Assembly (NCBI GenBank): GCA_965262985.1
Contig: OZ253576.1
Span: 132,480 to 196,479 of the forward strand
Direction: 5' to 3'
Length of the DNA stretch: 64,000 bases
Source: Vicinamibacterales bacterium
Lineage (GTDB): Bacteria > Acidobacteriota > Vicinamibacteria > Vicinamibacterales > UBA8438
In this document: piece by piece, positions 331-62,738 of the stretch
Layout: each line of letters starts with the position of its first letter
How positions within the stretch are numbered: the stretch's first letter is position 1
Program-made: the position numbers and the translations under genes
The notes under the pieces: generated by a model
What the model saw: only the letters and a program-made list of their open reading frames with translations
Told to the model about the DNA's origin: nothing
The model's database searches: none

Positions 331-496
331 CTAGGAGCCCGTGGTGAAACCGCGCGTAGCACCGAGCGTGGCGAGGCGCCCGCGTGGCAAGGCGTGACGA
401 GGGAGCATATTGGGCATATGTGACCGAGGAACAACGCGGTCCAGGCGGGATGCATCGCCGCGCGAATGCCGCGGGGCTTTCACCACGGGCTCCTAG
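331..496 (+). mobile_element. Palindromic ~160-bp MITE-like element, full copy, L->R on the plus strand
   Basis: The ends are cTAggagcccgtggtgaaa ... tttcaccacgggctccTAg. The core is gggcatatgtgaccgaggaacaacgc. The copy is TA-flanked and homologous to the copies at 36978, 56664, 59829 and 62573. Confidence 0.85.
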
Positions 497-10347: not shown

Positions 10348-12324
10348 ATGGCTCGATACGTGCGGCAGATTCTTGGACGGACCGGTTTCGCGCTGGTCGT
10401 CACCGCGCTGGCCGCGAACGCCGTGGCGCAGCAGGGTGCGCAGAACGGCGAGTGGCGGCACTACGGCGGTGACGAGGCCAATACCCGCTACTCGCCGCTC
10501 GATCAGATCAACGGGGACAACTTCAATGACCTCGAGCTGGTCTGGCGGATGAAGACCGACAACTTCGGTCCGGCGCCGGAATACAACTTGCAGTCGACGC
10601 CGCTGATGGTCGGCGGGGTCGTGTATACGACCGCCGGCACCCGCCGCGCGGTTGTGGCGGTCGATGCCGGCACCGGCGAGTATCTGTGGATGCATCGGCT
10701 CGACGAAGGAGAGCGCGGGTCAGCGGCGCCGCGCCGGCTCTCTGGTCGAGGGCTGGCATATCGTGACGACGGCGGCGCCGGTCAGATCATCTACGTCACG
10801 CCCGGCTACCGGATGATTGCGCTTCATGCCGACACCGGACAGCGTGTCTCCAGTTTCGGCGACGACGGCATCGTCGACCTGATGCAGAACATGGACCAGG
10901 AGATCGACCCGATCTCGGGCGAGATCGGGTTGCATGCCACCCCGCTCGTGGCCGGCGACACCATCGTCGTCGGGGCCGCCCACGTGCCGGGCGGCGCACC
11001 GGAATCGATGCGCAACACCAAGGGCTACATCCGCGGGTTCGACGCCGACAGCGGCGAACGCAAATGGATCTTCCACACGATTCCCGGCGGCGACGAATTT
11101 GGCAACGACACCTGGTTGAACGACTCCTGGCGTTACACCGGCAATGCCGGAGTCTGGGGGCAGATCAGCGTCGACCTCGAGCTGGGCATGGTCTATCTGC
11201 CGACGGAGATGCCGACCAACGACTACTACGGCGGTCATCGGCACGGGGACAACCTGTTCTCCGACAGCATCATCGCCGTCGACCTCGAGACCGGCCAGCG
11301 GCAGTGGCACTTCCAGGCGATCCATCACGATGTCTGGGACTGGGATTTCCCGTGCGCGCCGGTGCTGGCGGACGTCGAGATCGAAGGACGGCCTGGAATC
11401 ACGAAGATCATCGCGCAGCCGAGCAAGCAAAGCTGGTTGTATGTCCTCGACCGGGAGACCGGCGAGCCGATCTGGCCGATCGAGGAACGCCCGATGTCGC
11501 CGTCCGACGTGCCGGGGGAGTTGCTGGCGTTGACCCAGCCGTTTCCCACCCGGCCGCCCGCCTACGATCGGCAGGGGGTGAGCGAGGACGATCTGATCGA
11601 CTTCACTCCAGCGCTGCGGGCCGAGGCGCTCGAGCGCGTCTCGAACTTCCTGATGGGCCCGATCTTCACACCGCCGGTGGTGGCAGATCCTGACGGTCCC
11701 TACGGCACGCTGATGCTGCCGTCGACCGGCGGCGGCACCAACTGGCCGGGCGGGTCCATTGACCCCGAGACCGGCATCTTCTACCAGTACTCCTTCACCC
11801 AGATGGTGTCGCTGGGGCTCGTCAACGACCCGGTCCGCTCGGACATGGACTTCATCCGCGGCAACCCTCCCGGCGTGGCGCCGGCCGATCGCGCACTCAC
11901 CATCCGGGGGCTGCCGCTGGTCAAGCCGCCGTGGGGCCGCATCAGCGCGATCGATCTCAAGACCGGCGACATCATCTGGCAGATCGCCCACGGCGCCACG
12001 CCGGACAACGTGCGCGAGCATCCCGACCTGCAGGGCATCGACATTCCTCGGACCGGCCGCAGTGGCCGCGTAGGGACGTTGATCACCACGACCCTGGTGA
12101 TCGCCGGCGAGCCCGGCACCGTCACGATGCCCTCGGGAGCGCGCGGCTCGATGTTGAGAGCGTATGACAAGGCGACCGGGGCCGAGGTTGGTGCGGTCGC
12201 GATGCCGCTGGGCGTCACCGGGTCGCCGATGACCTACATGCAGGACGGATCGCAGTTCATCGTCGTCGCTGCCGGCGGCGGCGGCCAGGCCGGCGAATTG
12301 CTCGCTTACCGGCTGGTCGACTAG
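10348..12324 (+). CDS. PQQ-dependent dehydrogenase (soluble, glucose/quinate-like propeller), paralog 1
   Basis: caggagg precedes ATG 10348. The signal peptide ends AVAQQ. GEWRHYGGDEANTRYSPLDQI and HHDVWDWDFP are present. The TAG stop at 12322-12324 lies in the terminal cTAg of a MITE arm. Confidence 0.85.
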   Translation: MARYVRQILGRTGFALVVTALAANAVAQQGAQNGEWRHYGGDEANTRYSPLDQINGDNFNDLELVWRMKTDNFGPAPEYNLQSTPLMVGGVVYTTAGTRRAVVAVDAGTGEYLWMHRLDEGERGSAAPRRLSGRGLAYRDDGGAGQIIYVTPGYRMIALHADTGQRVSSFGDDGIVDLMQNMDQEIDPISGEIGLHATPLVAGDTIVVGAAHVPGGAPESMRNTKGYIRGFDADSGERKWIFHTIPGGDEFGNDTWLNDSWRYTGNAGVWGQISVDLELGMVYLPTEMPTNDYYGGHRHGDNLFSDSIIAVDLETGQRQWHFQAIHHDVWDWDFPCAPVLADVEIEGRPGITKIIAQPSKQSWLYVLDRETGEPIWPIEERPMSPSDVPGELLALTQPFPTRPPAYDRQGVSEDDLIDFTPALRAEALERVSNFLMGPIFTPPVVADPDGPYGTLMLPSTGGGTNWPGGSIDPETGIFYQYSFTQMVSLGLVNDPVRSDMDFIRGNPPGVAPADRALTIRGLPLVKPPWGRISAIDLKTGDIIWQIAHGATPDNVREHPDLQGIDIPRTGRSGRVGTLITTTLVIAGEPGTVTMPSGARGSMLRAYDKATGAEVGAVAMPLGVTGSPMTYMQDGSQFIVVAAGGGGQAGELLAYRLVD

Positions 12325-12388
12325 CAGCCCGTGGTGAAACCCCGCGTGGCACCGAGATTGGCGCTGCGCCCGCGTGGCAAGGCGCGAC
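12321..12388 (+). mobile_element. MITE-like element, truncated L arm
   Basis: The sequence ctagcagcccgtggtgaaaccccgcgtggcaccgagattggcgctgcgcccgcgtggcaaggcgcgacg matches the L arm and start of the core of the full copies. Similarity is then lost. Confidence 0.8.
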
Positions 12389-12412
12389 GGCGATGCAACG
12401 CGCGTGACAGCG

Positions 12413-13993
12413 CTACGACTCGGCGCCCGCGCGGGCGGCGCGCTCGCGGTCACGCAATTCGCGCCGGAGGATCTTGCCCGACGGCACCTTCGGGATGGCG
12501 TCGATGAACTCGACCTGACGGACCTTCTTGTGCGGCGCGACGCGGCCGGCGACGTGTGCCATGATCTCGTCCGCCGAGACCTCCGCGCCCGGTCTCACGA
12601 CGACGAACGCCTTCGGAATCTCACCGGCCTCCTCGTCAGGCACCGGAATCACGGCGGCGTCGGCGACCGCCGGATGCGCCTGGATGACCCCCTCGATCTC
12701 GGCCGGAGCGACTTGCATTCCCTTGTATTTGATGAGCTCCTTGGCCCGGTCGACCACGTACAGGTAGGCGTCCTCGTCGGCGTAGCCGATGTCGCCCGAG
12801 TGCAGCCAGCCATCCTCGTCGATCATGTCCCGGGTGGCGTCGGGATTGTTGAGATACCCCTTCATGACCTGCGGGCCGCGGATCCACACTTCTCCCAACT
12901 GCCCGGTCGCGGCGTCGGCGCCGTCCACGAGGTCGATCACGCGATATTCGGTGTTCGGCAGGACAAACCCGACCGACGTGTGCTTGATCTCCCGGTCCTT
13001 GCCGTTGGCATGAGTCACCGGGCTCGTCTCGGTCAGCCCGTAGCCCTGACGCAGCATCACGCCGTGCCGTTCGATGCACGCTTTCGCGACCGGTTCCGGC
13101 AGCGGCGCGGCGCCCGACAGGATGTTGCGCAGCTTCGACAGGTCGTAGTTGTCCACCAGCGGGTGCCTGGCCAGCGCCAGGACGATCGGGGGCACCAGAT
13201 AGGCCATGGTGACGCCATGCTTCTGCAGCAGCGCGAGGAACTGCTCGAGGTCGAAGCGCGGCATCGTGACGATGGTGGCGCCGGCCCGGAGTGCGCCGCT
13301 CATGATCACCACCATGCCGTAGATGTGGTAGAACGGCAGGATTCCGATCAGCACCTCCTCATCGGACAGGCGCTCGACCGAGTGCGTCTGACACAGGTTT
13401 GCGACCAGGTTGTGGTGCGTCAGCATGACCCCTTTCGGCAGACCGGTGGTGCCGCTCGAGTAGGGCAGCGAGACGAGATCCTCCAGTGGATCGATCTCGA
13501 CCACCGGCGGCGCTTCACCCTCCTGAGCGAGCGCGGCGAACGGGGTGGCGCCCGGCGCCTCGCCGAATACGAAGATCTCCTCCACGCTGGTACCCGCAAC
13601 CGCCTGCTGCGCCTTGTCGAGGAACTGGGGAATCGTGACCAGGAACTTCGCCTTCGAATCGGTGAGCTGACGTTTCAGCTCGTTCGCCGTATAGAGCGGA
13701 TTGACCGTCGTGCAGGCTCCGCCCGCGGTCGCGACCCCGAAGAACGCGATGGCGTACTCGGGGAGATTCGGGCTGTAGATGGCGAAGACGTCGTGCTTGC
13801 CGAAGCCGCGCGCCGCCAGACAGGCGGCCGTGCTCCGCACCGCCTGCACGAGTTGTCCGTAGGTGATCGTGCGTCCGGTCGGGCCGTCGATCAGGGCGGC
13901 CTTGCCGGCGAACCGCTCAGCGTGCTCGAACAGGAAGTCCTGGAGCGGTACGTTCGGGATGGCGACGTCGGGGTAGGGACTGCGATAGATCAT
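12413..13993 (-). CDS. AMP-dependent acyl-CoA ligase (4-coumarate/long-chain-fatty-acid CoA ligase type)
   Basis: It starts at the MIYRSPYPDV ATG at 13993. The AMP-binding motif is LPYSSGTTGLPKGV. Also present are GYGLTE, GWLHSGDIGY and the C-terminal PSGKILRR. Confidence 0.9.
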   Translation of the reverse strand: MIYRSPYPDVAIPNVPLQDFLFEHAERFAGKAALIDGPTGRTITYGQLVQAVRSTAACLAARGFGKHDVFAIYSPNLPEYAIAFFGVATAGGACTTVNPLYTANELKRQLTDSKAKFLVTIPQFLDKAQQAVAGTSVEEIFVFGEAPGATPFAALAQEGEAPPVVEIDPLEDLVSLPYSSGTTGLPKGVMLTHHNLVANLCQTHSVERLSDEEVLIGILPFYHIYGMVVIMSGALRAGATIVTMPRFDLEQFLALLQKHGVTMAYLVPPIVLALARHPLVDNYDLSKLRNILSGAAPLPEPVAKACIERHGVMLRQGYGLTETSPVTHANGKDREIKHTSVGFVLPNTEYRVIDLVDGADAATGQLGEVWIRGPQVMKGYLNNPDATRDMIDEDGWLHSGDIGYADEDAYLYVVDRAKELIKYKGMQVAPAEIEGVIQAHPAVADAAVIPVPDEEAGEIPKAFVVVRPGAEVSADEIMAHVAGRVAPHKKVRQVEFIDAIPKVPSGKILRRELRDRERAARAGAES

Positions 13994-14026
13994 CGTCGTC
14001 TCCGCATGCGCGTGTCCGGGCGCAGC

Positions 14027-14078
14027 GCCAATCTCGGTGCAACGCGGGGTCTTACCACGGGCTGCTAATAGGGTATGC
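14027..14078 (-). mobile_element. MITE-like element, truncated L arm in inverted orientation
   Basis: The reverse complement reads (t)tagcagcccgtggtaagaccccgcgttgcaccgagattggcgctgcgcccgg. This is an L-type arm, 34 nt upstream of the ligase start. Confidence 0.8.
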
Positions 14079-15543: not shown

Positions 15544-15639
15544 TCCACTCCCGTGGCAAGAGTCCCGCTGCATGTGACCGGCGCTGTATCCCGTCGAGCG
15601 GCCCGCCGGAGCCAACTATGGTAGGGTCCGGGAACGATC

Positions 15640-23762: not shown

Positions 23763-23835
23763 CTAGCAGCCCGTGGTGAAACCCCGTCGCACCGGGAACT
23801 GGTCGTCACCCTGCCGCGCCCGGTCAGCGCAGGGC
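23763..23835 (+). mobile_element. MITE-like element, truncated L arm (subfamily of the 36978 copy)
   Basis: ctagcagcccgtggtgaaaccccgtcgcaccgggaactggtcgtcaccctgccgcgcccgg parallels 36978-37045. It lies in the divergent thiolase/MaoC intergenic region. Confidence 0.7.
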
Positions 23836-30558: not shown

Positions 30559-31532
30559 GTAGGGGCAACCCTTGTGGTTGCCCTGACCGGTCGGGTATGC
30601 CGTAGGGGCAACCCTTGTGGTTGCCCTGTCCGGTCCGCGGTTGCCCTGTCCGGTCCGCGGCACGTGGTGCCCCCGGCGCGATGCGCGCCCCCCCGGCCGG
30701 CTCTGTCGCCGGCGGCCAGCGTAGGGGCAACCCTTGTGGTTGCCCTGTTCGGTCCGCGGTTGCCCTGTTCGGTCCGCGGTTGCCCTGTTCGGTCCGCGGT
30801 TGCCGTGTCGGGTCCGCGGCACGTGGTGCCCCCGGCGCGATGCGCGCCCCCCCCGGCCGGCTCTGTCGCTGGCGGCCAGCGTAGGGGCAACCCTTGTGGT
30901 TGCCCTGTCCGGTCCGCGGTTGCCTGTCCGGTCCGCGGTTGCCTGTCCGGTCCGCGGTTGCCTGTCCGGTCCGCGGTTGCCTGTCCGGTCTGCGGTTGCC
31001 TGTCCGGTCTGCGGTTGCCTTGTTCGGTCTGCGGTTGCCCTGTCCGGTCTGCGGTACGTGGTACCCCCGGCGCGATGCGCGCCCCCCGGCCGGCTCTGTC
31101 GCCGGCGGCCAGCGTAGGGGCAACCCTTGTGGTTGCCCTGTTCGGTCCGCGGATGCCCTGTCCGGTCCGCGGCGACCGTTGCGCTCGGCCCGTCCCGTGG
31201 GGTATCGCCAGCAGCGGGCACCCACAAGGGGTGCCCCTACAACGGATTCGGTACGCCGGGGCGGGCACCCACGAGGGGTGCCCCTACAACGGATTCGGTA
31301 CGCCGGGACGGGCGCCCACAAGGGGTGCCCCGACAACGGTGTCGTCACGCCGGGGCGGGCACCCACAAGGGGTGCCCCTACAACGGTGTCGTCACGCCGG
31401 GACGGGCGCCCACAAGGGGTGCCCCTACAACGGTGTCGTCACGCCGGGACGGGCGCCCGCGAGGTGCGCCCCTACCGATGATCGGGGACAAGGCGCCGCC
31501 GTGCAGCGTAGGGGCAACCCTTGTGGTTGCCC
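30559..31532. repeat. REP (repetitive extragenic palindrome) array upstream of the RAYT gene
   Basis: Six forward GTAGGGGCAACC-CTTGT-GGTTGCCC hairpins start at 30559, 30602, 30721, 30881, 31114 and 31508. Six inverted GGGCACCC-ACAAG-GGGTGCCCCTAC-type hairpins lie at 31215-31475. Tandem 19-20 bp sub-repeats are interspersed. Confidence 0.9.
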
Positions 31533-31546
31533 TGTCCGGTCTTGGT

Positions 31547-32173
31547 ATGAAAGTTGCGACCTTGGGAATGGCAATGGACTTGTTGGATCGCGACCATAAC
31601 CCAGACCACCTCCGCCAACGCCGCCGTCCGCTTCGCCTGAAGCGATACGACTACGCCCTGGCGGGCGCGTACTTCGTTACGATCGTTGTGCAGAACCGGT
31701 CGTGTCTTTTGGGTGAAGTTGTTGGCGAAGAGATTCGTTTGAACGACGCGGGGAAGCTGGCCCGCAGGGAGTGGGAGGCATTGCCGTACCGGTTCCCAAG
31801 CATCGATATTGACGCCTTTGTGATCATGCCGAATCATCTTCACGGTATCGCCATCATTGATCAATCCGTAAAGGCACCCACAGCGAGCGCCCCTACCCGG
31901 GACGGCATGACGGAAACGGTGGCAACTCCATCCAACAAGACAACCACAAGGGTATTCCCGACGTTGGGAGATGTGGTTGGCGCCTACAAATCCTTGACCA
32001 CGGTCGAATATGTGCGGGGCGTCAAAATGCTGGCATGGCCCCGGTTTTCAGACCGTCTGTGGCAACGCAATTACTACGAACACGTCATACGGCACGACGA
32101 GTCGCTGCGGGAAATCCGACAGTACATCCTCGACAACCCGGCGCGGTGGGCCCTTGACCCGGAGAACCGGTAA
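31547..32173 (+). CDS. REP-associated tyrosine transposase (RAYT; IS200/IS605 TnpA-like Y1 HUH enzyme)
   Basis: LRLKRYDYALAGAYFVTIVVQNR, the HUH motif VIMPNHLHGI and the Tyr motif RNYYEHVIR...IRQYILDNP are present. The start could be 31547, 31568 or 31574. The upstream part of track ORF 31127..32173 is REP translation. Confidence 0.85.
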   Translation: MKVATLGMAMDLLDRDHNPDHLRQRRRPLRLKRYDYALAGAYFVTIVVQNRSCLLGEVVGEEIRLNDAGKLARREWEALPYRFPSIDIDAFVIMPNHLHGIAIIDQSVKAPTASAPTRDGMTETVATPSNKTTTRVFPTLGDVVGAYKSLTTVEYVRGVKMLAWPRFSDRLWQRNYYEHVIRHDESLREIRQYILDNPARWALDPENR

Positions 32174-32206
32174 ACGCCCCACGCCCGGCTCTGTCGTCGG
32201 CGGCCA

Positions 32207-32621
32207 GTAGGGGCAACCCTTGTGGTTGCCCTGTCCGGTCCGTGGTTGCCCTGTCCGGTCCGTGGTTGCCCTGTCCGGTCCGTGGTTGCCCTGTTCGGTC
32301 CGTGGTTGCCCTGTCCGGTCCGTGGTTGCCCTGTTCGGTCCGTGGTTGCCCCTGTCCGTTCTGCGGTGCCCGTTGCCCACGGTCCGTCCTCCGGGGAGTC
32401 GCCAGCAGCGGGCACCCACAAGGGGTGCCCCTACAACGGTGTCGATCCGCCGGGGGCGGGCACCCACACGGGGTGGGCACCCACACGGGGCGGGCACCCA
32501 CACGGGGCGGGCACCCACACGGGGCGGGCACCCACACGGGGCGCCCCTACAACGGTGTCGATCCGCCCAAGAGGCACCGTTGTCGCGCCGTGCCATGTAG
32601 GGGCAACCCTTGTGGTTGCCC
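32207..32621. repeat. REP array downstream of the RAYT gene
   Basis: Forward GTAG hairpins start at 32207 and 32597. Between them are 6 x 20-bp tgtccggtccgtggttgccc repeats, inverted hairpins at 32409 and ~32525, and 5 x 17-bp gggcacccacacggggc repeats. Confidence 0.9.
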
Positions 32622-32645
32622 TGTTCCGTGCGCCGGCGCCAGGCG

Positions 32646-36977: not shown

Positions 36978-37156
36978 CCAGGAGCCTGCGGTGAAACCCC
37001 GCGTCGCACCGAGAACTGGTCGTAATAATGCCGTGCCCGGCCAGTATCAGGCGCGACGGGGGAGCACATTGGGGCATGTGTGACCGAGAAGCAACGCCGG
37101 CAGCCGGGATGCAGCGCCGTTCGAATGCAGCGGGGCGTTTGCCACGGGCTGCCAGG
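36978..37156 (+). mobile_element. MITE-like element, full copy (longer subfamily)
   Basis: The sequence runs ccaggagcctgcggtgaaaccccgcgtcgcacc...ggggcatgtgtgaccgagaagcaacgcc...gcggggcgtttgccacgggctgccagg. It lies between the stop of 37167..38279 and the methyltransferase gene. Confidence 0.85.
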
Positions 37157-40411: not shown

Positions 40412-40457
40412 ACGTAGTCCTCGCCCGGCCGCCCGCCCCCGACGTAACGAAACCGCT

Positions 40458-40856
40458 GTAGGGGCGCCCCTTGTGGGCGCCCGTCCGCCGTAGGGGCGCC
40501 CCTTGTGGGCGCCCGTCCGTTGTAGGGGCGTCCCTTGTGGGCGCCCGTCCGTTGTAGGGGCGCCCCTTGTGGGCGCCCGTCCGTTGTAGGGGCGCCCCTT
40601 GTGGGCGCCCGTCCGTTGTAGGGGCGCCCCTTGTGGGCGCCCGTCCGCCGCGCTCGCACGCGCCCGCCCGCCCCCGACGTCACGACACCGCCGTAGGGGC
40701 GCCCCTTGTGGGCGCCCGTCCGCCGCGCTCGCACGGGGCCGCCCGCCCCCGACGTCACGACACCGCCGTAGGGGCGCCCCTTGTGGGCGCCCGTCCGTGG
40801 CGCTCGCACGGCCGCCCGCCCCATTTGTAGGGGCGCCCCTTGTGGGCGCCCGTCCG
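40458..40856 (+). repeat. REP array of nine same-orientation GC-stem hairpins
   Basis: The unit is GTAGGGGCGCCC-CTTGT-GGGCGCCCGTCCG. Six copies are contiguous at an exact 32-bp period (40458-40649). Three more start at 40693, 40768 and 40827. Confidence 0.9.
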
Positions 40857-40957
40857 CTGCGCTCGCACGCCCGCCCGCCCCCGGCGCGACCGCTGTTTTC
40901 TTTTGACAATCTGAAGAAATCATGACAGGGTATCTGTAGATCAGCAAAAGGAGAGGG

Positions 40958-52225: not shown

Positions 52226-52529
52226 CTAGCAGCCCGTGGCAAAAGCCCCGCTGCATGCGATCCCCGCAGAATTCAGCCTTCCCCCGCAGAATTCAGCCTT
52301 CCCCGCGGAATTCTGCTGAGCGTCATTGTTCCGGCTGACGAACAGGGCAACCACAAGGGTTGCCCCTACAGGTATTTTCCCGCAGAATTCTGCTGTGCGT
52401 CGTTGTTCCGGCTGACGAACAGGGCAACCACAAGGGTTGCCCCTACAGGTATGCTCCCGCTTCTCGCCTTGCTCAGCGGGCGCATCGCTGATCTCGGTGC
52501 AACGCGGGGTTCTGCCACGGGCTGCTGGT
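52226..52529 (-). mobile_element. MITE-like element whose core is replaced or interrupted by ~230 bp carrying two REP hairpins
   Basis: The left end is ctagcagcccgtggcaaaagccccgctgcat (R-type arm). The right end is gatctcggtgcaacgcggggttctgccacgggctgctgg (L-type arm). Inside are two ~77-bp direct repeats, each with GGGCAACC-ACAAG-GGTTGCCCCTAC (52345-52369 and 52422-52446) and GCAGAATTCTGC palindromes. Confidence 0.8.
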
Positions 52530-54690: not shown

Positions 54691-56895
54691 TCAGTCTGGC
54701 AGCGCCAGCGCAATCAGTTCCGGGACCGGCGAGCCGCCGACGGTCAGCGCGATGTACTGCTTGCCACCGAGCAGATAGCTCATGGGGGTGCCGATCGCTC
54801 CGCGAGGGAGATTGACCGAGGCGAGCTCGGCGCCGCTCGACTTGTCGACGGCGACCAGACGGGGTCCACCGCCCGCGCCGCCGGTCGTCAGCGCATAGAT
54901 GAGCAGGGTCCTGGTCACCAGCGGTCCGCTTCGGCTTCCGTCTCCGCCGAGCGGCGGCAGGTCGAGGTTCCGCAGCAGCGGGTGATTCCTTACCCGGTCG
55001 CCAGCACCCAGCGGGTTCATCCAGACATGGTCGCCGGTGTTCAGATCGATGGCGGTCATCCGCGAATAGGGCGGTTTGAAGAGCGGGAGTCCCTGCGGCA
55101 TGGTCGGCTGCCGCGTGCCCTGGCCGCGCAGTTCGATGATGTTCAGCGTCGCCGCTTCTCCAGTTTCCGGTTCGCGGTAGTTGCGCACCGAGAAGGCGTT
55201 GACGGACGGCACATAGAGCATCCCCGTGTCCGGGTCGACGCCGGCGCCTGACCAGTTGGCGCCGCCGCCCGTGCTCGGACGCTGAATCGTGCCCTGCAGG
55301 CTCTGCGGCGTGAAGAGCGGACCCAGCCGGAACCCGTCCACCGCATCGATCGCCATTTGGCGGATCTCCGGGGTGAAGTCGGCCAGGTCGTCAATGGTGG
55401 CCCCCTGATACTCGAACGGCGCCGGGCGGGTGGGGAACGGCTGTGTCGGCCACACCTGTTCGCCCGGAATATCCGTATCGGTCGGGACCGGTCGTTCTTC
55501 GATCGGCCACACCGGTTCGCCGGTGACACGATCGAAGACATAGAGGAAGCCCTGCTTGCTCACCTGGGCCAGCGCCTTGATCGGGCGTCCGTCCACTTCG
55601 ATGTCGATCAGGTTCGGGGCGGCGGGGAAGTCGTAGTCCCACAGCCCGTGGTGCACCGCCTGGAAGTGCCACTCGCGCTCGCCGGTCTCGAGGTTCAGCG
55701 CCACCACGCTCTCGGCGAACAGATTGGCGCCGGGACGATGGCCGCCGTAGTAGTCGGGCGCCGGGGTGTTGGTGGGCAGATAGAGCAACCCCAGTTCCGG
55801 ATCGGCGCTCATCATCGACCACACGCCGACCTTGCCCGTCACCCGCCACGAGTCGCCGCCCCAGGTGTCGTTTCCGAATTCGTCTCCCTGCGGAATCGTG
55901 TGAAACGTCCACTTGGTGCGTCCGGTTCGCACGTCGAACCCGCGCATCCATCCAGGCGGCGCTTCCCGCGTGATGTTGTAGGACGAGATCGACGCGGGGG
56001 TGATGATTGTGTCGCCGACCACGAGGGGCGGCGACTGCACCGAATAGAGCAGCGCGTTCAGCCAGTCCCGATCGCCGCGGGTGGCGCGCGGGATGTCGCG
56101 GGTCAGGTCGACCCGCCCGTCTTCGCCGAAGTCGGCGCAGGGGCGCCCGCTGTCGGCGGCGACGCAGATCAGGTAGCCGTTGCTCGTGCCCCAGAAGACC
56201 CGGCCCCCCTCGCCGTCGTCCCAGTAGGCCACGCCGCGCTGGTTCCAGCGCGCCGTCATCGTGGTGGTGCCTTCTTCGTAGGTCTTCGGGTTGAAGAGCC
56301 ACAAGGTCTCGCCGGTGGCGGCGTCGATGGCGGCGCCCGCCGAGGTCGGCATGTTGATGAACACGCGCCCGTCCACCATCAACGGGGTCGCCTTCAGATT
56401 GTTCGTGTAGGGTGGCTGCCCGTCCCGCCAGCGGTCCGGATTCTCCTCGTTCAGTGCGTCGAAGATGACGTCGGAACGCGTCAGCCACTCGCCGCCGCCA
56501 AGTGTCGTCTTGCTCATGCGGGCGTCGGACGATTGCCAGCGCCAGGCGATCTCGAGATCGCCGAAGTTCGACGCGTCGATCTGATCCAGCGGCGAGTACT
56601 TGCTGCCGGCGAGGTCTCCGCCGTAGGTGGGCCACTCGCCGTTCGCCGGGGCCCCCTGCTGAGCCAGGAGCCCGTGGCAAAAGCCCCGCGGCATTCGACC
56701 GGCGATGCATCCCGCGTGGACCGCGTTGCTCCTCGGTTGCATATGCCCAATATGCGCCCTCGTCGCGCCTTGCCACGCGGGCGCCTCGCCGGTCTCGGTG
56801 CCACGCGCGGTTTCACCACGGGCTCCTGGAGCCGGGACGGCGGTCAGGATGGCCACGGCCACAATCCTCGGAATCAGGTGAGTTTGAAAAGTCAT
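54691..56895 (-). CDS. PQQ-dependent dehydrogenase, paralog 3, carrying a MITE-derived 54-codon insert in its signal peptide
   Basis: gagggat precedes ATG 56895 (MTFQTHLIPRIVAVAILTAV). After the insert the protein continues AQQGAPANGEWPTYGGDLAGSKYSPLDQI. HHGLWDYDFPAAP is present. Confidence 0.8.
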   Translation of the reverse strand: MTFQTHLIPRIVAVAILTAVPAPGARGETARGTETGEAPAWQGATRAHIGHMQPRSNAVHAGCIAGRMPRGFCHGLLAQQGAPANGEWPTYGGDLAGSKYSPLDQIDASNFGDLEIAWRWQSSDARMSKTTLGGGEWLTRSDVIFDALNEENPDRWRDGQPPYTNNLKATPLMVDGRVFINMPTSAGAAIDAATGETLWLFNPKTYEEGTTTMTARWNQRGVAYWDDGEGGRVFWGTSNGYLICVAADSGRPCADFGEDGRVDLTRDIPRATRGDRDWLNALLYSVQSPPLVVGDTIITPASISSYNITREAPPGWMRGFDVRTGRTKWTFHTIPQGDEFGNDTWGGDSWRVTGKVGVWSMMSADPELGLLYLPTNTPAPDYYGGHRPGANLFAESVVALNLETGEREWHFQAVHHGLWDYDFPAAPNLIDIEVDGRPIKALAQVSKQGFLYVFDRVTGEPVWPIEERPVPTDTDIPGEQVWPTQPFPTRPAPFEYQGATIDDLADFTPEIRQMAIDAVDGFRLGPLFTPQSLQGTIQRPSTGGGANWSGAGVDPDTGMLYVPSVNAFSVRNYREPETGEAATLNIIELRGQGTRQPTMPQGLPLFKPPYSRMTAIDLNTGDHVWMNPLGAGDRVRNHPLLRNLDLPPLGGDGSRSGPLVTRTLLIYALTTGGAGGGPRLVAVDKSSGAELASVNLPRGAIGTPMSYLLGGKQYIALTVGGSPVPELIALALPD
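56667..56828 (-). mobile_element. MITE-like element, full copy inside a coding sequence (palindrome spans 56664-56829)
   Basis: The sequence is ccaggagcccgtggcaaaagcc...catatgcccaatatgc...tttcaccacgggctcctgg. Removing 56667-56828 (162 nt) keeps the frame and gives ...TAVPALAQQGAP.... Confidence 0.85.
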
Positions 56896-57113
56896 GCAAC
56901 GATCCCTCGCGCCAGCGTGTTCCGTGTTCACGAGATTCATGATACCCGCCGGCGGGGTTGCGATGCTACGTTGCCCGCCGTCGGGCCGCGTTGCCGGGTT
57001 GGCCGCTGGCGGGGTCGCGATCTTTGAGGAGCCCGCCGGCGGGTGAGGCTTGGGTCGCGGACACCGTCGCGATAGAATGGCGGCACCGTGACTGTCTGGA
57101 CCAGGAGCCTGCG

Positions 57114-59828: not shown

Positions 59829-59994
59829 CTGGCAGCCCGTGGTGAAACCCCGCGTTGCACCGAGATTGGCGTTGCGCCCGCGTGGCAAGGCGCGACGAGG
59901 GAGCAAATTGGGGCATTTGTGACCGAGGAGCAACGCCGCCACGCGGGATGCAGCGCCAATTGAATGCAGTGGGGCTTTCACCACGGGCTGCCAG
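59829..59994 (+). mobile_element. MITE-like element, full copy
   Basis: The sequence runs ctggcagcccgtggtgaaaccccgcgttgcaccgagattgg...ggggcatttgtgaccgaggagcaacgcc...ggggctttcaccacgggctgccag. It lies 26 nt upstream of the nfi ATG. Confidence 0.85.
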
Positions 59995-62572: not shown

Positions 62573-62738
62573 ATAGCAGCCCGTGGTAAAAGCCCCGCTG
62601 CATTCGATTGGCGCTGCATCCCGTCTGGCGGCGTTGCTCCTCGGTCACAAATGCCCCAATTTGCTCCCTCGTCGCGCCTTGCCAGCCGGGCGCCGCGCCA
62701 ATCTCGGTGCAACGCGGGATTCTACCACGGGCTGCTAG
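62573..62738 (-). mobile_element. MITE-like element, full copy, TA-flanked
   Basis: The sequence runs a-TA-gcagcccgtggtaaaagcc...cacaaatgccccaatttgc...attctaccacgggctgc-TA-g. In L->R orientation it points toward the esterase start, 125 nt away. Confidence 0.85.

Follow-up and report, generated by a model that had tools for sequence, protein, structure and literature searches.

A MITE has been inserted in frame within the signal-peptide coding region of a PQQ-dehydrogenase gene, here called DH3, in a 64,000-nucleotide stretch of Vicinamibacterales DNA (the window, to which all positions below refer). The gene occupies 54691..56895 on the minus strand and is read through the element as 734 codons and a stop, compared with 680 codons when the insert is taken out. 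Our preferred reading is that a single recent insertion was spread among diverged alleles by recombination and that the product is likely still exported; taken as a whole, we give it a probability of roughly 0.6. The structural and evolutionary part of this reading (the insertion, its site, the single origin and the spread) we regard as nearly certain.

The interrupted gene and its signal peptide

DH3 begins at the ATG at 56895-56893 and ends with the stop at 54691, both on the minus strand. A Shine-Dalgarno-like GAGGGA (56903..56908, minus strand) lies 7 nt upstream of the ATG, and on the other upstream haplotype found for this gene an equivalent AAGGAG is in the same position. The translation, MTFQTHLIPRIVAVAILTAVPA-PGARGET...FCHGL-LAQQGAPANGEW, is identical to database protein P0129 and matches Pfam family PF01011 over the complete profile (E=2.1e-184; residues 88-715, profile positions 1-595 of 595). 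The domain starts at residue 88 in DH3 and at residue 34 in paralog 2, a gap of exactly 54. The orthologues are named 'pyrroloquinoline quinone-dependent dehydrogenase' by NCBI. Based on the full-length PF01011 match, DH3 is a putative PQQ-dependent dehydrogenase with an 8-bladed quinoprotein propeller. It was not placed in any curated NCBIfam subfamily, as the best matches are all under the cut-off (TIGR03074, 374 bits against 833; TIGR04528, 'acido-empty-quinoprotein group A', 234 bits against 650). The setting is a periplasmic dehydrogenase of soil Acidobacteriota of the Vicinamibacterales lineage, and the window encodes three paralogous PQQ dehydrogenases. Among DH3 alleles dN/dS is 0.06-0.12 and the gene family is under strong purifying selection. 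As a test of selection after the insertion this ratio is uninformative, since the insertion is younger than the divergence of the alleles.

The element proper is 160 nt long (GGAGCCCGTGG...CCACGGGCTCC; 56667..56826, minus strand) and supplies codons 24-76 and the first base of codon 77. Its ends, GGAGCCCGTGGTGAAACC... and ...GGCTTTTGCCACGGGCTCC, are terminal inverted repeats (TIRs) of approximately 22 nt, GGAGCCCGTGGTGAAACCGCGC on the 5' side (56805..56826, minus strand) and ...GCGGGGCTTTTGCCACGGGCTCC on the 3' side (56667..56688, minus strand), which pair with each other in the predicted fold. These termini are conserved throughout the family. The 5' copy of the target-site duplication (56827..56828, minus strand) is CA, decayed from TA, and it is CA in every filled allele. 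The 3' copy (56665..56666, minus strand) is TG in the window and TA, within C-TA-G, in the filled alleles L002, L003 and L005. Together, the element and the 2-bp duplication add 162 nt, or 54 codons, between codons 22 and 23. The MITE leaves intact the signal-peptide codons 1-22 and the first base of codon 23 (56829..56895, minus strand). Native sequence resumes at 56641..56664 (minus strand) with GCT CAG CAG GGG GCC, which encodes the former cleavage site and mature N-terminus, A|QQGAP; its GGG GCC is a marker in linkage with the insertion.

The insertion falls in the c-region of a Sec signal peptide that consists of the n-region MTFQTHLIPR and the hydrophobic core IVAVAILTAV followed by PA. 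The first-pass annotation had proposed from the window alone that a MITE lies in frame inside this signal peptide, and the sequence, the other copies of the family and the empty alleles of relatives all confirm it. Excising 56667-56828 (162 nt, a multiple of three) does yield ...ILTAVPALAQQGAPANGEW and a 680-aa protein, and the N-termini quoted for paralogs 1 and 2 were correct. The junction predicted in this way, ...AVPALA|QQG, occurs in real empty alleles (P0003/L001 and L007), which read ...LTAVPALAQQGAPANGEW. The excised or empty form conforms to the Sec (SPase I) rules (R10, IVAVAILTAV, P-A-L-A|Q), and the same architecture is found in the orthologues and in both paralogs.

The MITE thus transposed into the stretch that encodes the signal peptide of a periplasmic PQQ dehydrogenase. 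Its point of entry, at a Leu-Ala codon pair that we reconstruct as GCT CTA GCY, separates positions -3 and -2 of A-L-A|Q. The reading frame runs on through 54 codons because 160 plus 2 makes 162 nt and because this copy is free of stops in the frame set by CTA|G. An exact search found no empty allele with an intact CTAG at the DH3 site (the empty sites read CTG, GCG and CTC), and a degenerate-pattern search for the unoccupied CTAG target returned three orthologues, with CTC or CTG.

A TA-duplicating element family

The insert is a MITE in its small size, which leaves no space for a transposase, its TIRs, its target duplication and its dispersed polymorphic copies. Its predicted fold is a single long hairpin (-111.9 kcal/mol, z=-6.9), and a 41-mer taken from it matches a second site where 0 matches are expected by chance. 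The closest full copy in the window (334..493, plus strand) is 91% identical, is flanked by CTAG on both sides and carries a TGA in frame at the position of CAA in the DH3 copy. Further full copies lie between the esterase and endonuclease V genes (59832..59991, plus strand) and at 62576..62735 (minus strand), the latter with a clean TA duplication. A diverged copy of 172 nt is found at 36981..37152 (plus strand), and the window also holds partial or expanded copies. Three window copies, including the one in DH3, have empty counterparts in syntenic loci. The copy at 59832-59991 is absent from L001 and L003 and the one at 62576-62735 is absent from L003 (empty GGGTC-TA-TTC, filled GGGTC-TA-[160 nt]-TA-TCA), and the family has therefore been mobile recently.

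The family is abundant in Vicinamibacterales MAGs, with at least 102 exact 31-mer matches in GTDB genomes among the matches listed. We delimited 71 copies, 46 of which have the canonical length of 160 nt and 44 of which are flanked by TA on both sides, in agreement with the size of 160 plus 2 nt given in the first pass. The flanking tetramer is CTAG at 94 of the 142 ends (45 left and 49 right), and the variants CTAT, CTAA, TTAG and GTAG all retain the TA. The window contains only 10 CTAG sites where 57 are expected, and six of the ten are at element ends. A 4-bp duplication of CTAG, as for IS5-like elements, explains these data less well than a 2-bp duplication of TA, considering the empty site CTAT at 62576 and the flanks TTAG and CTAA. 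The TA duplication and the CTAG preference are the signature of IS630/Tc1-type transposition, and the IS630 assignment is based on target and duplication only.

We found no autonomous insertion sequence with matching ends enclosing a transposase in the window or in approximately 100 loci of 8 kb. The inverted ends at 12322-14067 flank a gene for an AMP-binding acyl-CoA synthetase and not a transposase, and between the paired ends of L109 and L074 lie mnmE and a cytochrome-c PQQ dehydrogenase. No Rfam family reaches the gathering threshold anywhere in the window, and a scan around the DH3 element found neither promoter nor terminator. The TA/CTAG-targeting family in Vicinamibacterales is apparently undescribed and recently active.

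Most copies are intergenic, and a check of those inside ORFs, as suggested in the first pass, found approximately 3 of 71 that are intragenic and read through. The frame used in DH3 is open in 18% of copies in the DH3 orientation, compared with 72% in the other orientation and 30% of shuffled sequences; copies with both CTA|G frames open make up 12%, compared with 13% of shuffles. These values rule out a family built for translation in the manner of the Rickettsia palindromic elements (RPE). Stops in the DH3 frame occur at nt 52, 88 and 136 in 25, 7 and 11 of 39 unique copies, respectively. The open variants at these three stop-prone codons are already polymorphic in the family, so that repair of stops after the insertion need not be invoked. 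The first-pass annotation had remarked that the orientation and frame in DH3 happen to lack stops. This is true but not special: five of the six frames of the DH3 copy are open and, together with the family rates of 18% and 72%, this means that an open frame here is not improbable.

There is a precedent inside the family. At L039 a genuine signal peptide (MGKAFRLG|LVLALGAVIPALA-QTNQ) is split, again in the CTA|G frame, by a copy of 178 plus 2, or 180, nt, while homologues have collinear N-termini without interruption. This is a second case of in-frame read-through. At L058 the ATG equivalent to one in the DH3 copy (MQRGFHHGLL) runs into LSTLLVAG|C and would give a complete lipoprotein signal. 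A copy 98% identical to the DH3 element is found elsewhere, at L032.

Filled and empty alleles and their products

The site is empty in close relatives at 96-99% protein identity. Orthologues no more than 88% identical all have 680-685 aa and lack the insert, as would be expected from the first-pass reading. Filled and empty alleles are about equally common and co-exist in the population of these uncultured soil Acidobacteriota. We recovered seven distinct full-length filled alleles of 734 aa from independent short-read and long-read assemblies, and one filled allele was found on 14 contigs. A further candidate, P0131/L006, had appeared to be a frameshift allele with the element in another frame; it has three single-base indels on a 5x contig, which are probable assembly errors. 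The DH3 gene of L007, a circular 28x MAG, carries an unrelated frameshifting insertion of 128 nt.

Every filled allele has the CA at the 5' end of the element, GCT immediately upstream and, 17 nt downstream, GGGGCC, and all empty alleles carry GCC and GGGGCG at the flanking marker sites. The element in L002, L003 and L005 is 100% identical to that in the window, and there are 0 differences in 162 nt among filled alleles; dS in the gene body is 0.10-0.20, and at that divergence roughly 17-32 differences would be expected under neutrality. The insertion is nevertheless present on two very different N-terminal and upstream haplotypes, with 13 differences in 67 positions just upstream. The near-identical alleles L005 (filled) and L004 (empty) differ by the element, by five SNPs no more than 45 nt from it and by one SNP in the remaining 1,900 or so nt of the gene. 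Given the shared decayed duplication, the linked flanking SNPs and the complete identity of the element despite a dS of 0.10-0.20, the filled alleles go back to one young insertion. It is much younger than the alleles that carry it and has moved between backgrounds by short-patch homologous recombination.

Translation presumably still starts at the native ATG. As the filled allele has kept its n-region and hydrophobic core, the protein is probably still targeted to Sec, although the native A-L-A|Q site is destroyed. Under the -3/-1 rule, cleavage at A|P after residue 22 is blocked by the Pro at +1, and the candidate sites are A-P-G|A after residue 24 and A-R-G|E after residue 27; the terminal repeat encodes P-G-A-R-G-E, with small residues at -3/-1. 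AlphaFold modelled the propeller normally (pTM 0.80) and the insert with a pLDDT of 22-35 and no secondary structure, and the insert is thus predicted to be a disordered N-terminal tail outside the propeller. Most probably the enzyme would be exported with roughly 50 disordered residues at its N-terminus or, should cleavage fail, stay anchored in the membrane through its own signal peptide. In either form the filled allele would be tolerated, its effect being neutral or mildly deleterious. From the signal-peptide rules and the structural model, we lean slightly towards a filled DH3 that is still exported and active.

A less probable but serious alternative is that the MITE inactivates the gene, either because export or processing fails or because the hairpin lowers expression, and that the resulting null allele has spread neutrally, the gene being dispensable because of its paralogs. 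The open frame would then simply be too young for decay: with zero substitutions in the element there has been no time for it and, for the same reason, the intact ORFs are no sign of selective upkeep. The three paralogs in the window and the frameshifting insertion in L007 make DH3 plausibly dispensable. Loss of the native cleavage site also points in this direction, as does the hairpin, which starts 68 nt into the coding sequence and, at -112 kcal/mol, could lower translation or attract RNase III in the manner reported for the Correia elements. Additionally, Sec translocation might suffer from the Arg residues at +2 and +7 past the putative new site of cleavage, and the stops that most copies have in the DH3 frame indicate a family not adapted for translation. 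However, the n- and h-regions are untouched, alternative -3/-1 sites exist and the insert, according to the model, is disordered and lies clear of the propeller. The filled allele is as frequent as described above and has recombined onto several backgrounds, none of the seven high-quality filled alleles has a secondary disabling mutation, and an RPE insertion in gmk was reported to be compatible with an active enzyme (PMC2229807).

It is unlikely that the filled allele is instead favoured, by virtue of a flexible tail or an uncleaved signal anchor, and that the MITE family prefers the Leu-Ala (CTA-GCN) pairs of signal peptides. If a favoured allele were the case, it would explain how a young insertion came to be on several diverged backgrounds and about as common as the empty site. 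A preference for signal peptides (DH3, L039 and L058) would make the family a recurrent generator of N-terminal proteoforms for exported proteins in soil Acidobacteriota.

Slightly less likely again is recurrent insertion, in which an active master copy entered a CTAG hotspot independently on different haplotypes. The identity is almost exactly limited to the element, with the window and L002 diverging from the first base past it, the family has a strong preference for CTAG, a rare tetramer in this DNA, and the copy at L032 is nearly identical. However, the filled alleles share their orientation, the decayed CA and the linked GCT and GGGGCC, which are found in no empty allele, and the cluster of flanking SNPs between L005 and L004 could not be created by de novo transposition. 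We therefore retain a single insertion spread by recombination.

The empty alleles also bear on where translation starts. The first-pass annotation had offered three outcomes, namely export with the insert, inactivation and an internal start, and the last of these appears the least likely, as MPRGFCHGLLAQQ lacks an adequate hydrophobic core. The product would begin within the element at M52 (ATG-CAA) or M67 (ATG-CCG, 'MPRGFCHGLLAQQG...') and lose the original signal. There are indeed in-frame ATGs at codons 52 and 67, and the equivalent ATG at L058 would make a complete signal. However, M67 (PRGFCHGLLAQQG) is followed by only about seven weakly hydrophobic residues and no signal peptide, and without export a PQQ quinoprotein would be in the wrong compartment. 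A suitably spaced Shine-Dalgarno sequence was not found, nor was a promoter-like site. Upstream, the ATG, the Shine-Dalgarno and the signal peptide are all conserved and are contiguous in the empty alleles L001 and L007, which indicates that the upstream start is authentic and not fortuitous. An internal restart is thus very improbable. We give a negligible probability to the idea that the 54 codons represent a linker native to this lineage or an error of assembly, for which only the open reading frame speaks: many genomes carry the 160-nt family, at more than 100 sites and with its TIRs and TA duplications, empty alleles exist at 96-99% protein identity and the insertion is present in independent short-read (NODE_486, ERZ6108624) and long-read assemblies.

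Comparison with known translated elements

In-frame translated MITEs are already known, from the Rickettsia RPE work onwards, among the RPE, ERIC, Correia and YPAL elements (PMC2229807, PMC10969869). DH3 is a clean but not unprecedented case of a gene that is still readable after a transposon hit, and it overturns nothing. The insertion hit the single section of an exported protein that is either removed or under loose constraint, and the filled and empty pair is ready-made material on the tolerance of distortion in the Sec c-region. In the preferred reading, DH3 is also an example of a transposon insertion spread by short-patch homologous recombination and not by transposition.

The RPE, of approximately 105-150 bp, lie in frame in conserved genes (Ogata et al. 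2000, summarised in PMC2229807 and PMC10969869). Their inserts were judged to be compatible with the fold, and in one tested case, gmk, the enzyme is reported to be still active (PMC2229807). With DH3 they share a palindromic mobile element that is in frame in a conserved gene and read as extra peptide. However, RPE families are reported to be ORF-bearing and very frequently intragenic, whereas the present family is mostly intergenic with the DH3 frame mostly closed; among 71 copies (39 unique for stops) we found neither a family-wide conserved ORF nor a frequent intragenic position. The insertions lie in surface loops for the RPE and in the signal peptide for DH3, and TA/CTAG targeting, which is clear in the present family, is only partial for the RPE. 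The two occur in different phyla and sequence relatedness is not expected.

Correia elements of Neisseria (the 107-bp form) and intragenic ERIC are likewise fused in frame to ORFs (PMC2229807, PMC10969869). They resemble the present family as TA-flanked MITEs with long mRNA hairpins and in-frame ORF fusion. However, the taxa and sequences differ.

For RUP of Streptococcus pneumoniae, which is reported to be intergenic, the partner IS630-Spn1 was identified through similarity of the TIRs (PMC2229807). RUP and other MITEs mobilised by IS630/Tc1-mariner elements (ISY100, PMC2170065) are, as here, small TIR elements with a TA duplication. The present family is presumably also mobilised in trans by an IS630-family transposase, and its highly similar copies suggest recent mobility. 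RUP differs in having a named partner, whereas the window and the 8-kb loci gave none for the present family.

Similar in position is the YPAL/RU-2 element of Yersinia, which forms part of a predicted signal peptide at locus YPO1552 (Delihas, PMC2229807). As in DH3, a MITE-like repeat is translated within an N-terminal export signal. However, YPAL/RU-2 adds a hydrophobic signal to a putative new exported protein, whereas the MITE in DH3 interrupts the c-region of a pre-existing conserved signal, and filled and empty alleles of DH3 still segregate, unlike in the Yersinia case. The copy at L058 is a closer analogue of YPAL/RU-2 than the one in DH3.

The DH3 insert and its element family

The PQQ-dehydrogenase gene DH3 (minus strand, ATG at 56895, stop at 54691) is preceded by a Shine-Dalgarno-like GAGGGA with a 7-nt spacer, and its translation gives a 734-residue product starting MTFQTHLIPRIVAVAILTAVPA-PGARGETARGTETGEAPAWQGATRAHIGHMQPRSNAVHAGCIAGRMPRGFCHGL-LAQQGAPANGEW. 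Deleting 56667-56828 (162 nt) in silico yields a 680-residue protein reading ...ILTAVPALAQQGAPANGEW. The Pfam PF01011 (PQQ propeller) match begins at residue 88 in DH3 and at residue 34 in paralog 2, another PQQ dehydrogenase in the window, an offset of exactly the 54 inserted residues. These results confirm the observation of the first-pass annotation that a MITE lies in frame within the DH3 signal peptide and that its excision restores the cleavage region. The N-termini it quoted for paralogs 1 and 2 are correct, and its interpretation is supported overall. All NCBIfam matches to the DH3 protein are sub-threshold, including TIGR04528 ('acido-empty-quinoprotein group A', 234 bits compared with a cut-off of 650), so PQQ use by the propeller is putative rather than established.

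The DH3 copy (56667-56826, minus strand) belongs to a family of elements that are canonically 160 nt with a 2-bp TA duplication. A repeat search of the window identified full copies at 334-493, 36981-37152, 59832-59991 and 62576-62735, one expanded copy (about 52228-52528) and four partial ones (12321-12398, 14016-14068, about 15550-15593, about 23765-23797). The terminal inverted repeats are ~22 nt, and the RNA folds into one hairpin (-111.9 kcal/mol compared with a shuffle mean of -78.2, z=-6.9); Rfam returned zero family matches across the whole window. Exact matches to a left-arm 31-mer number >102 among GTDB species genomes, and those listed are nearly all from Vicinamibacterales MAGs, with a few from Bryobacterales and Terriglobia. 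Among 71 copies with both ends delimitable, 46 are exactly 160 nt long and seven are 178 nt. TA...TA flanks are found in 44 of the 71. As flanking tetramer, CTAG occurs at 45 left ends and 49 right ends, with CCAG and CTGG as its most frequent variants. The copy at 62576-62735 is absent from the syntenic locus L003 of a related genome, and the junctions (empty GGGTC-TA-TTC, filled GGGTC-TA-[160 nt]-TA-TCA) indicate a clean 2-bp duplication. The copy at 59832-59991 is absent from both L003 and a second syntenic locus, L001. The TA duplication and CTAG preference point to IS630/Tc1-type transposition, and RUP/IS630-Spn1 provides a bacterial precedent for IS630-type MITE mobilisation (PMC2229807). 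No autonomous IS partner was found in the window or the fetched loci, so the IS630/Tc1 assignment is based only on the signature.

CTAG is ~6-fold under-represented in the window, with 10 sites observed (331, 493, 12321, 21102, 23763, 45320, 47426, 52226, 53702 and 62735) and ~57 expected; six of the ten are at MITE ends. CCAG and CTGG show a slight excess in the window, and TA to CA or TG is the most frequent change at the ends of the 71 copies. CTAG loss of very-short-patch type has been described for enterobacteria (PMC5337935), and by analogy the decay at MITE ends would fit such a process. The CTAG depletion and flank decay suggest a very-short-patch-like T:G to C:G bias.

Other arrangements of these repeats were also observed. 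The stop codon of paralog 1 (…AYRLVD then TAG at 12322-12324; feature 12304-12398) is the TAG of the CTAG that ends the partial copy at 12321-12398; the MITE entered exactly at this codon, and the duplication kept the stop. Between 12322 and 14067, two left-arm-type ends that are 94% complementary face each other with TA outside each, enclosing exactly one gene, for an AMP-binding acyl-CoA synthetase (about 12413-13993, minus strand). The pair may represent either two truncated copies or a cargo unit that can be mobilised. At L010 5846-6200 (OZ244900.1), three left-arm matches at exact 162-nt spacing form a tandem array, which is what insertion of copies into the terminal TA/CTAG of an element already in place would produce. 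A second repeat family, consisting of short GC-rich palindromes (GTAGGGGCAACCCTTGTGGTTGCCC / GTAGGGGCGCCCCTTGTGGGCGCCC), occurs in large arrays at 30559-32640, 40421-40896 and 52228-52528 with periods of 17, 19, 20, 32, 47 and 75 nt, and is also nested within the MITE copy at the last of these positions.

Filled and empty alleles

A protein-database search identified DH3 orthologues in Vicinamibacterales/Acidobacteria MAGs. Those with ≤88% identity are all 680-685 aa with an unbroken signal peptide (...AAPAAAQQGAPANGEW, ...STGALAQQGAPANGEW, etc.). Within a group at 96-99% identity, alleles with the insert (filled) and without it (empty) are both present. The filled proteins, all 734 aa, are the window's own (identical to P0129), P0001, P0002, P0124, P0128, P0135 (found on 14 contigs) and P0137; the empty state is found in P0003, P0139, P0121, P0122, P0125, P0127, P0132, P0134 and the allele at locus L007. 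Empty-site DNA of the window's N-terminal haplotype (L001, L007) reads CCG GCC CTG GCC CAG (VPALAQ), bearing out the prediction of empty-site alleles, and the other haplotype (L004) reads CCG GCC GCG GCC CAA (VPAAAQ). The filled loci L002, L003 and L005 read CCG GCT C-CA-[160 nt]-TA-G CCC AA, with TG replacing the 3' TA in the window. From these junctions the target is reconstructed as GCT CTA GCY, its CTAG derived from a Leu(CTA)-Ala codon pair. Exact and degenerate sequence searches found no extant allele with an intact CTAG at the DH3 site.

All filled alleles share the orientation of the MITE, a decayed 5' CA, GCT directly upstream and GGG GCC 17 nt downstream; every empty allele carries GCC and GGG GCG at the two marker positions. 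The MITE is identical in the window, L002, L003 and L005 (0/162 differences), compared with ~17-32 differences expected per 162 nt at the neutral rate; the gene bodies that carry it are separated by dS of 0.10-0.20, and the window and L002/L003 differ at 13 of the 67 nt directly upstream. The DH3 alleles are clearly mosaic, because the upstream and gene-body groupings disagree: the window's upstream haplotype groups with the empty L001, while in the gene body the filled L003 groups with L001, and the window with L002, L004 and L005. The most informative pair is filled L005 and empty L004: they differ across the 2.2-kb gene by the MITE and five SNPs ≤45 nt from its 3' end, with one SNP in the other ~1,900 nt, which is a short imported patch. 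The five flanking SNPs rule out de novo transposition or excision for this pair, because both would keep the flanking bases unchanged. These comparisons indicate that one young insertion, spread by recombination, accounts for the filled alleles.

The region upstream of the gene also varies. The intergenic region at 56900-57060 and its counterparts in L001 and L007 contain a variable number of ~45-90 nt repeat units (…GCAACCCGCCGGCGGGCTCCTCGAAGATCGCGACCCCGCCAGCGG…) that differs between DH3 alleles, and the upstream sequence of the other haplotype (L002-L005) is unrelated to this type. A further filled allele, at L006 2400-2650 (ERZ25071132, a 5x coverage contig), has three single-base indels in and beside the MITE, so the gene caller began inside the element in another frame (P0131, MTKARRGRILGICNRG…). 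The indels are probably a low-coverage assembly error, a genuinely frameshifted filled allele being less probable.

Open frame and predicted product

The 160+2 nt of every canonical copy is divisible by three, as is the 180 nt added by the 178-nt subfamily. The DH3 copy is open in five of six frames. The DH3 orientation and frame is open in 18% of 50 unique copies compared with 30% of dinucleotide shuffles, and the opposite orientation in 72% compared with 48%; stops are thus not depleted in the family. At three polymorphic, stop-prone codons the DH3 copy has TGG at nt 52 (TGA in 25/39 copies), CAA at nt 88 (TGA in 7/39) and CCG at nt 136 (TAG in 11/39), and a 98%-identical copy exists elsewhere, at L032. 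These codons and this second copy indicate that DH3 was hit by a naturally open subfamily member. The open frame is unremarkable, and closed insertions are plausibly filtered out by selection. Copies are mostly intergenic; same-frame coding signatures occur on both sides in only 3/71, all with stops in that frame.

The MITE is inserted downstream of the hydrophobic core, splitting -3/-2 of A-L-A|Q, and leaves the n-region (R10) and h-region (IVAVAILTAV) intact. Proline at +1 blocks signal peptidase I, and cleavage at A22|P23 is excluded on this basis. The -3/-1 rule permits A-P-G24|A25 and A-R-G27|E28, with c-region lengths of 4 and 7, and the charges after these candidate sites are balanced (R26, E28, R31, E34, E37). 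AlphaFold, using a 34-sequence alignment, models residues ~15-78 at pLDDT 22-35 without secondary structure and the propeller normally (pTM 0.80). The likeliest product would be an exported enzyme with a ~50-residue disordered N-terminal tail, or a signal-anchored form.

The main rival is that the MITE inactivates DH3, the filled state being a null allele that is tolerated. In so young an insertion an intact ORF carries no meaning, three paralogs occur within 64 kb, and the MITE hairpin may depress expression. In addition, the DH3 gene of L007 (OZ244838.1, a circular 5.8-Mb Vicinamibacterales MAG) lacks the MITE but has an unrelated frameshifting insertion (2297-2437, net 128 nt near codon 50) that leads to a stop at codon 119. 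The gene model starts at an internal Met (P0138, 608 aa), and the insert sequence is unique among the fetched loci. Translation from M52 or M67, inside the insert, is the least likely outcome: its product would lack a signal peptide, and a scan found no promoter-like site around the DH3 MITE.

Other signal peptides and known in-frame fusions

At L039 3144-4631 (OZ252008.1), a 178+2-nt copy lies in the opposite orientation and in frame inside the signal peptide of an ankyrin-repeat protein, which it splits at GGC CTA G (MGKAFRLG|LVLALGAVIPALA-QTNQ). Homologues with 50-72% identity have unbroken collinear N-termini, e.g. MGQLFRLPILLALSMASSVATGQPSS.... At L058 2052-2300, MQRGFHHGLL is encoded by the 3' end of a 160-nt copy and continues in frame into LSTLLVAG|C (lipobox). 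If translation begins inside it, the MITE may contribute both the start codon and the n-region of what would be a complete lipoprotein signal. DH3, L039 and L058 share the CTA|G frame, which makes the terminal repeat encode (L/P)GARGE...HHGLL whichever way the copy is oriented. Rare CTA-GCN codon pairs are naturally to be expected in Leu-Ala-rich signal peptides; that these peptides are hit in excess is conjectural.

A literature search found no paper linking MITEs with Acidobacteria or Vicinamibacter. In-frame MITE fusions that work in the same way as the DH3 case have been described for Rickettsia RPEs, ERIC, the 107-bp Correia elements and Yersinia YPAL/RU-2; the RPE-bearing Rickettsia guanylate kinase is reported to be active, and the YPAL/RU-2 element makes up a portion of a predicted signal peptide (PMC2229807, PMC10969869). 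The family described here is not RPE-like, because its copies are intergenic and stop-rich. The DH3 insertion is of an already known kind, to which it adds segregating filled and empty alleles, recombinational spread, and repeated hits on signal peptides.
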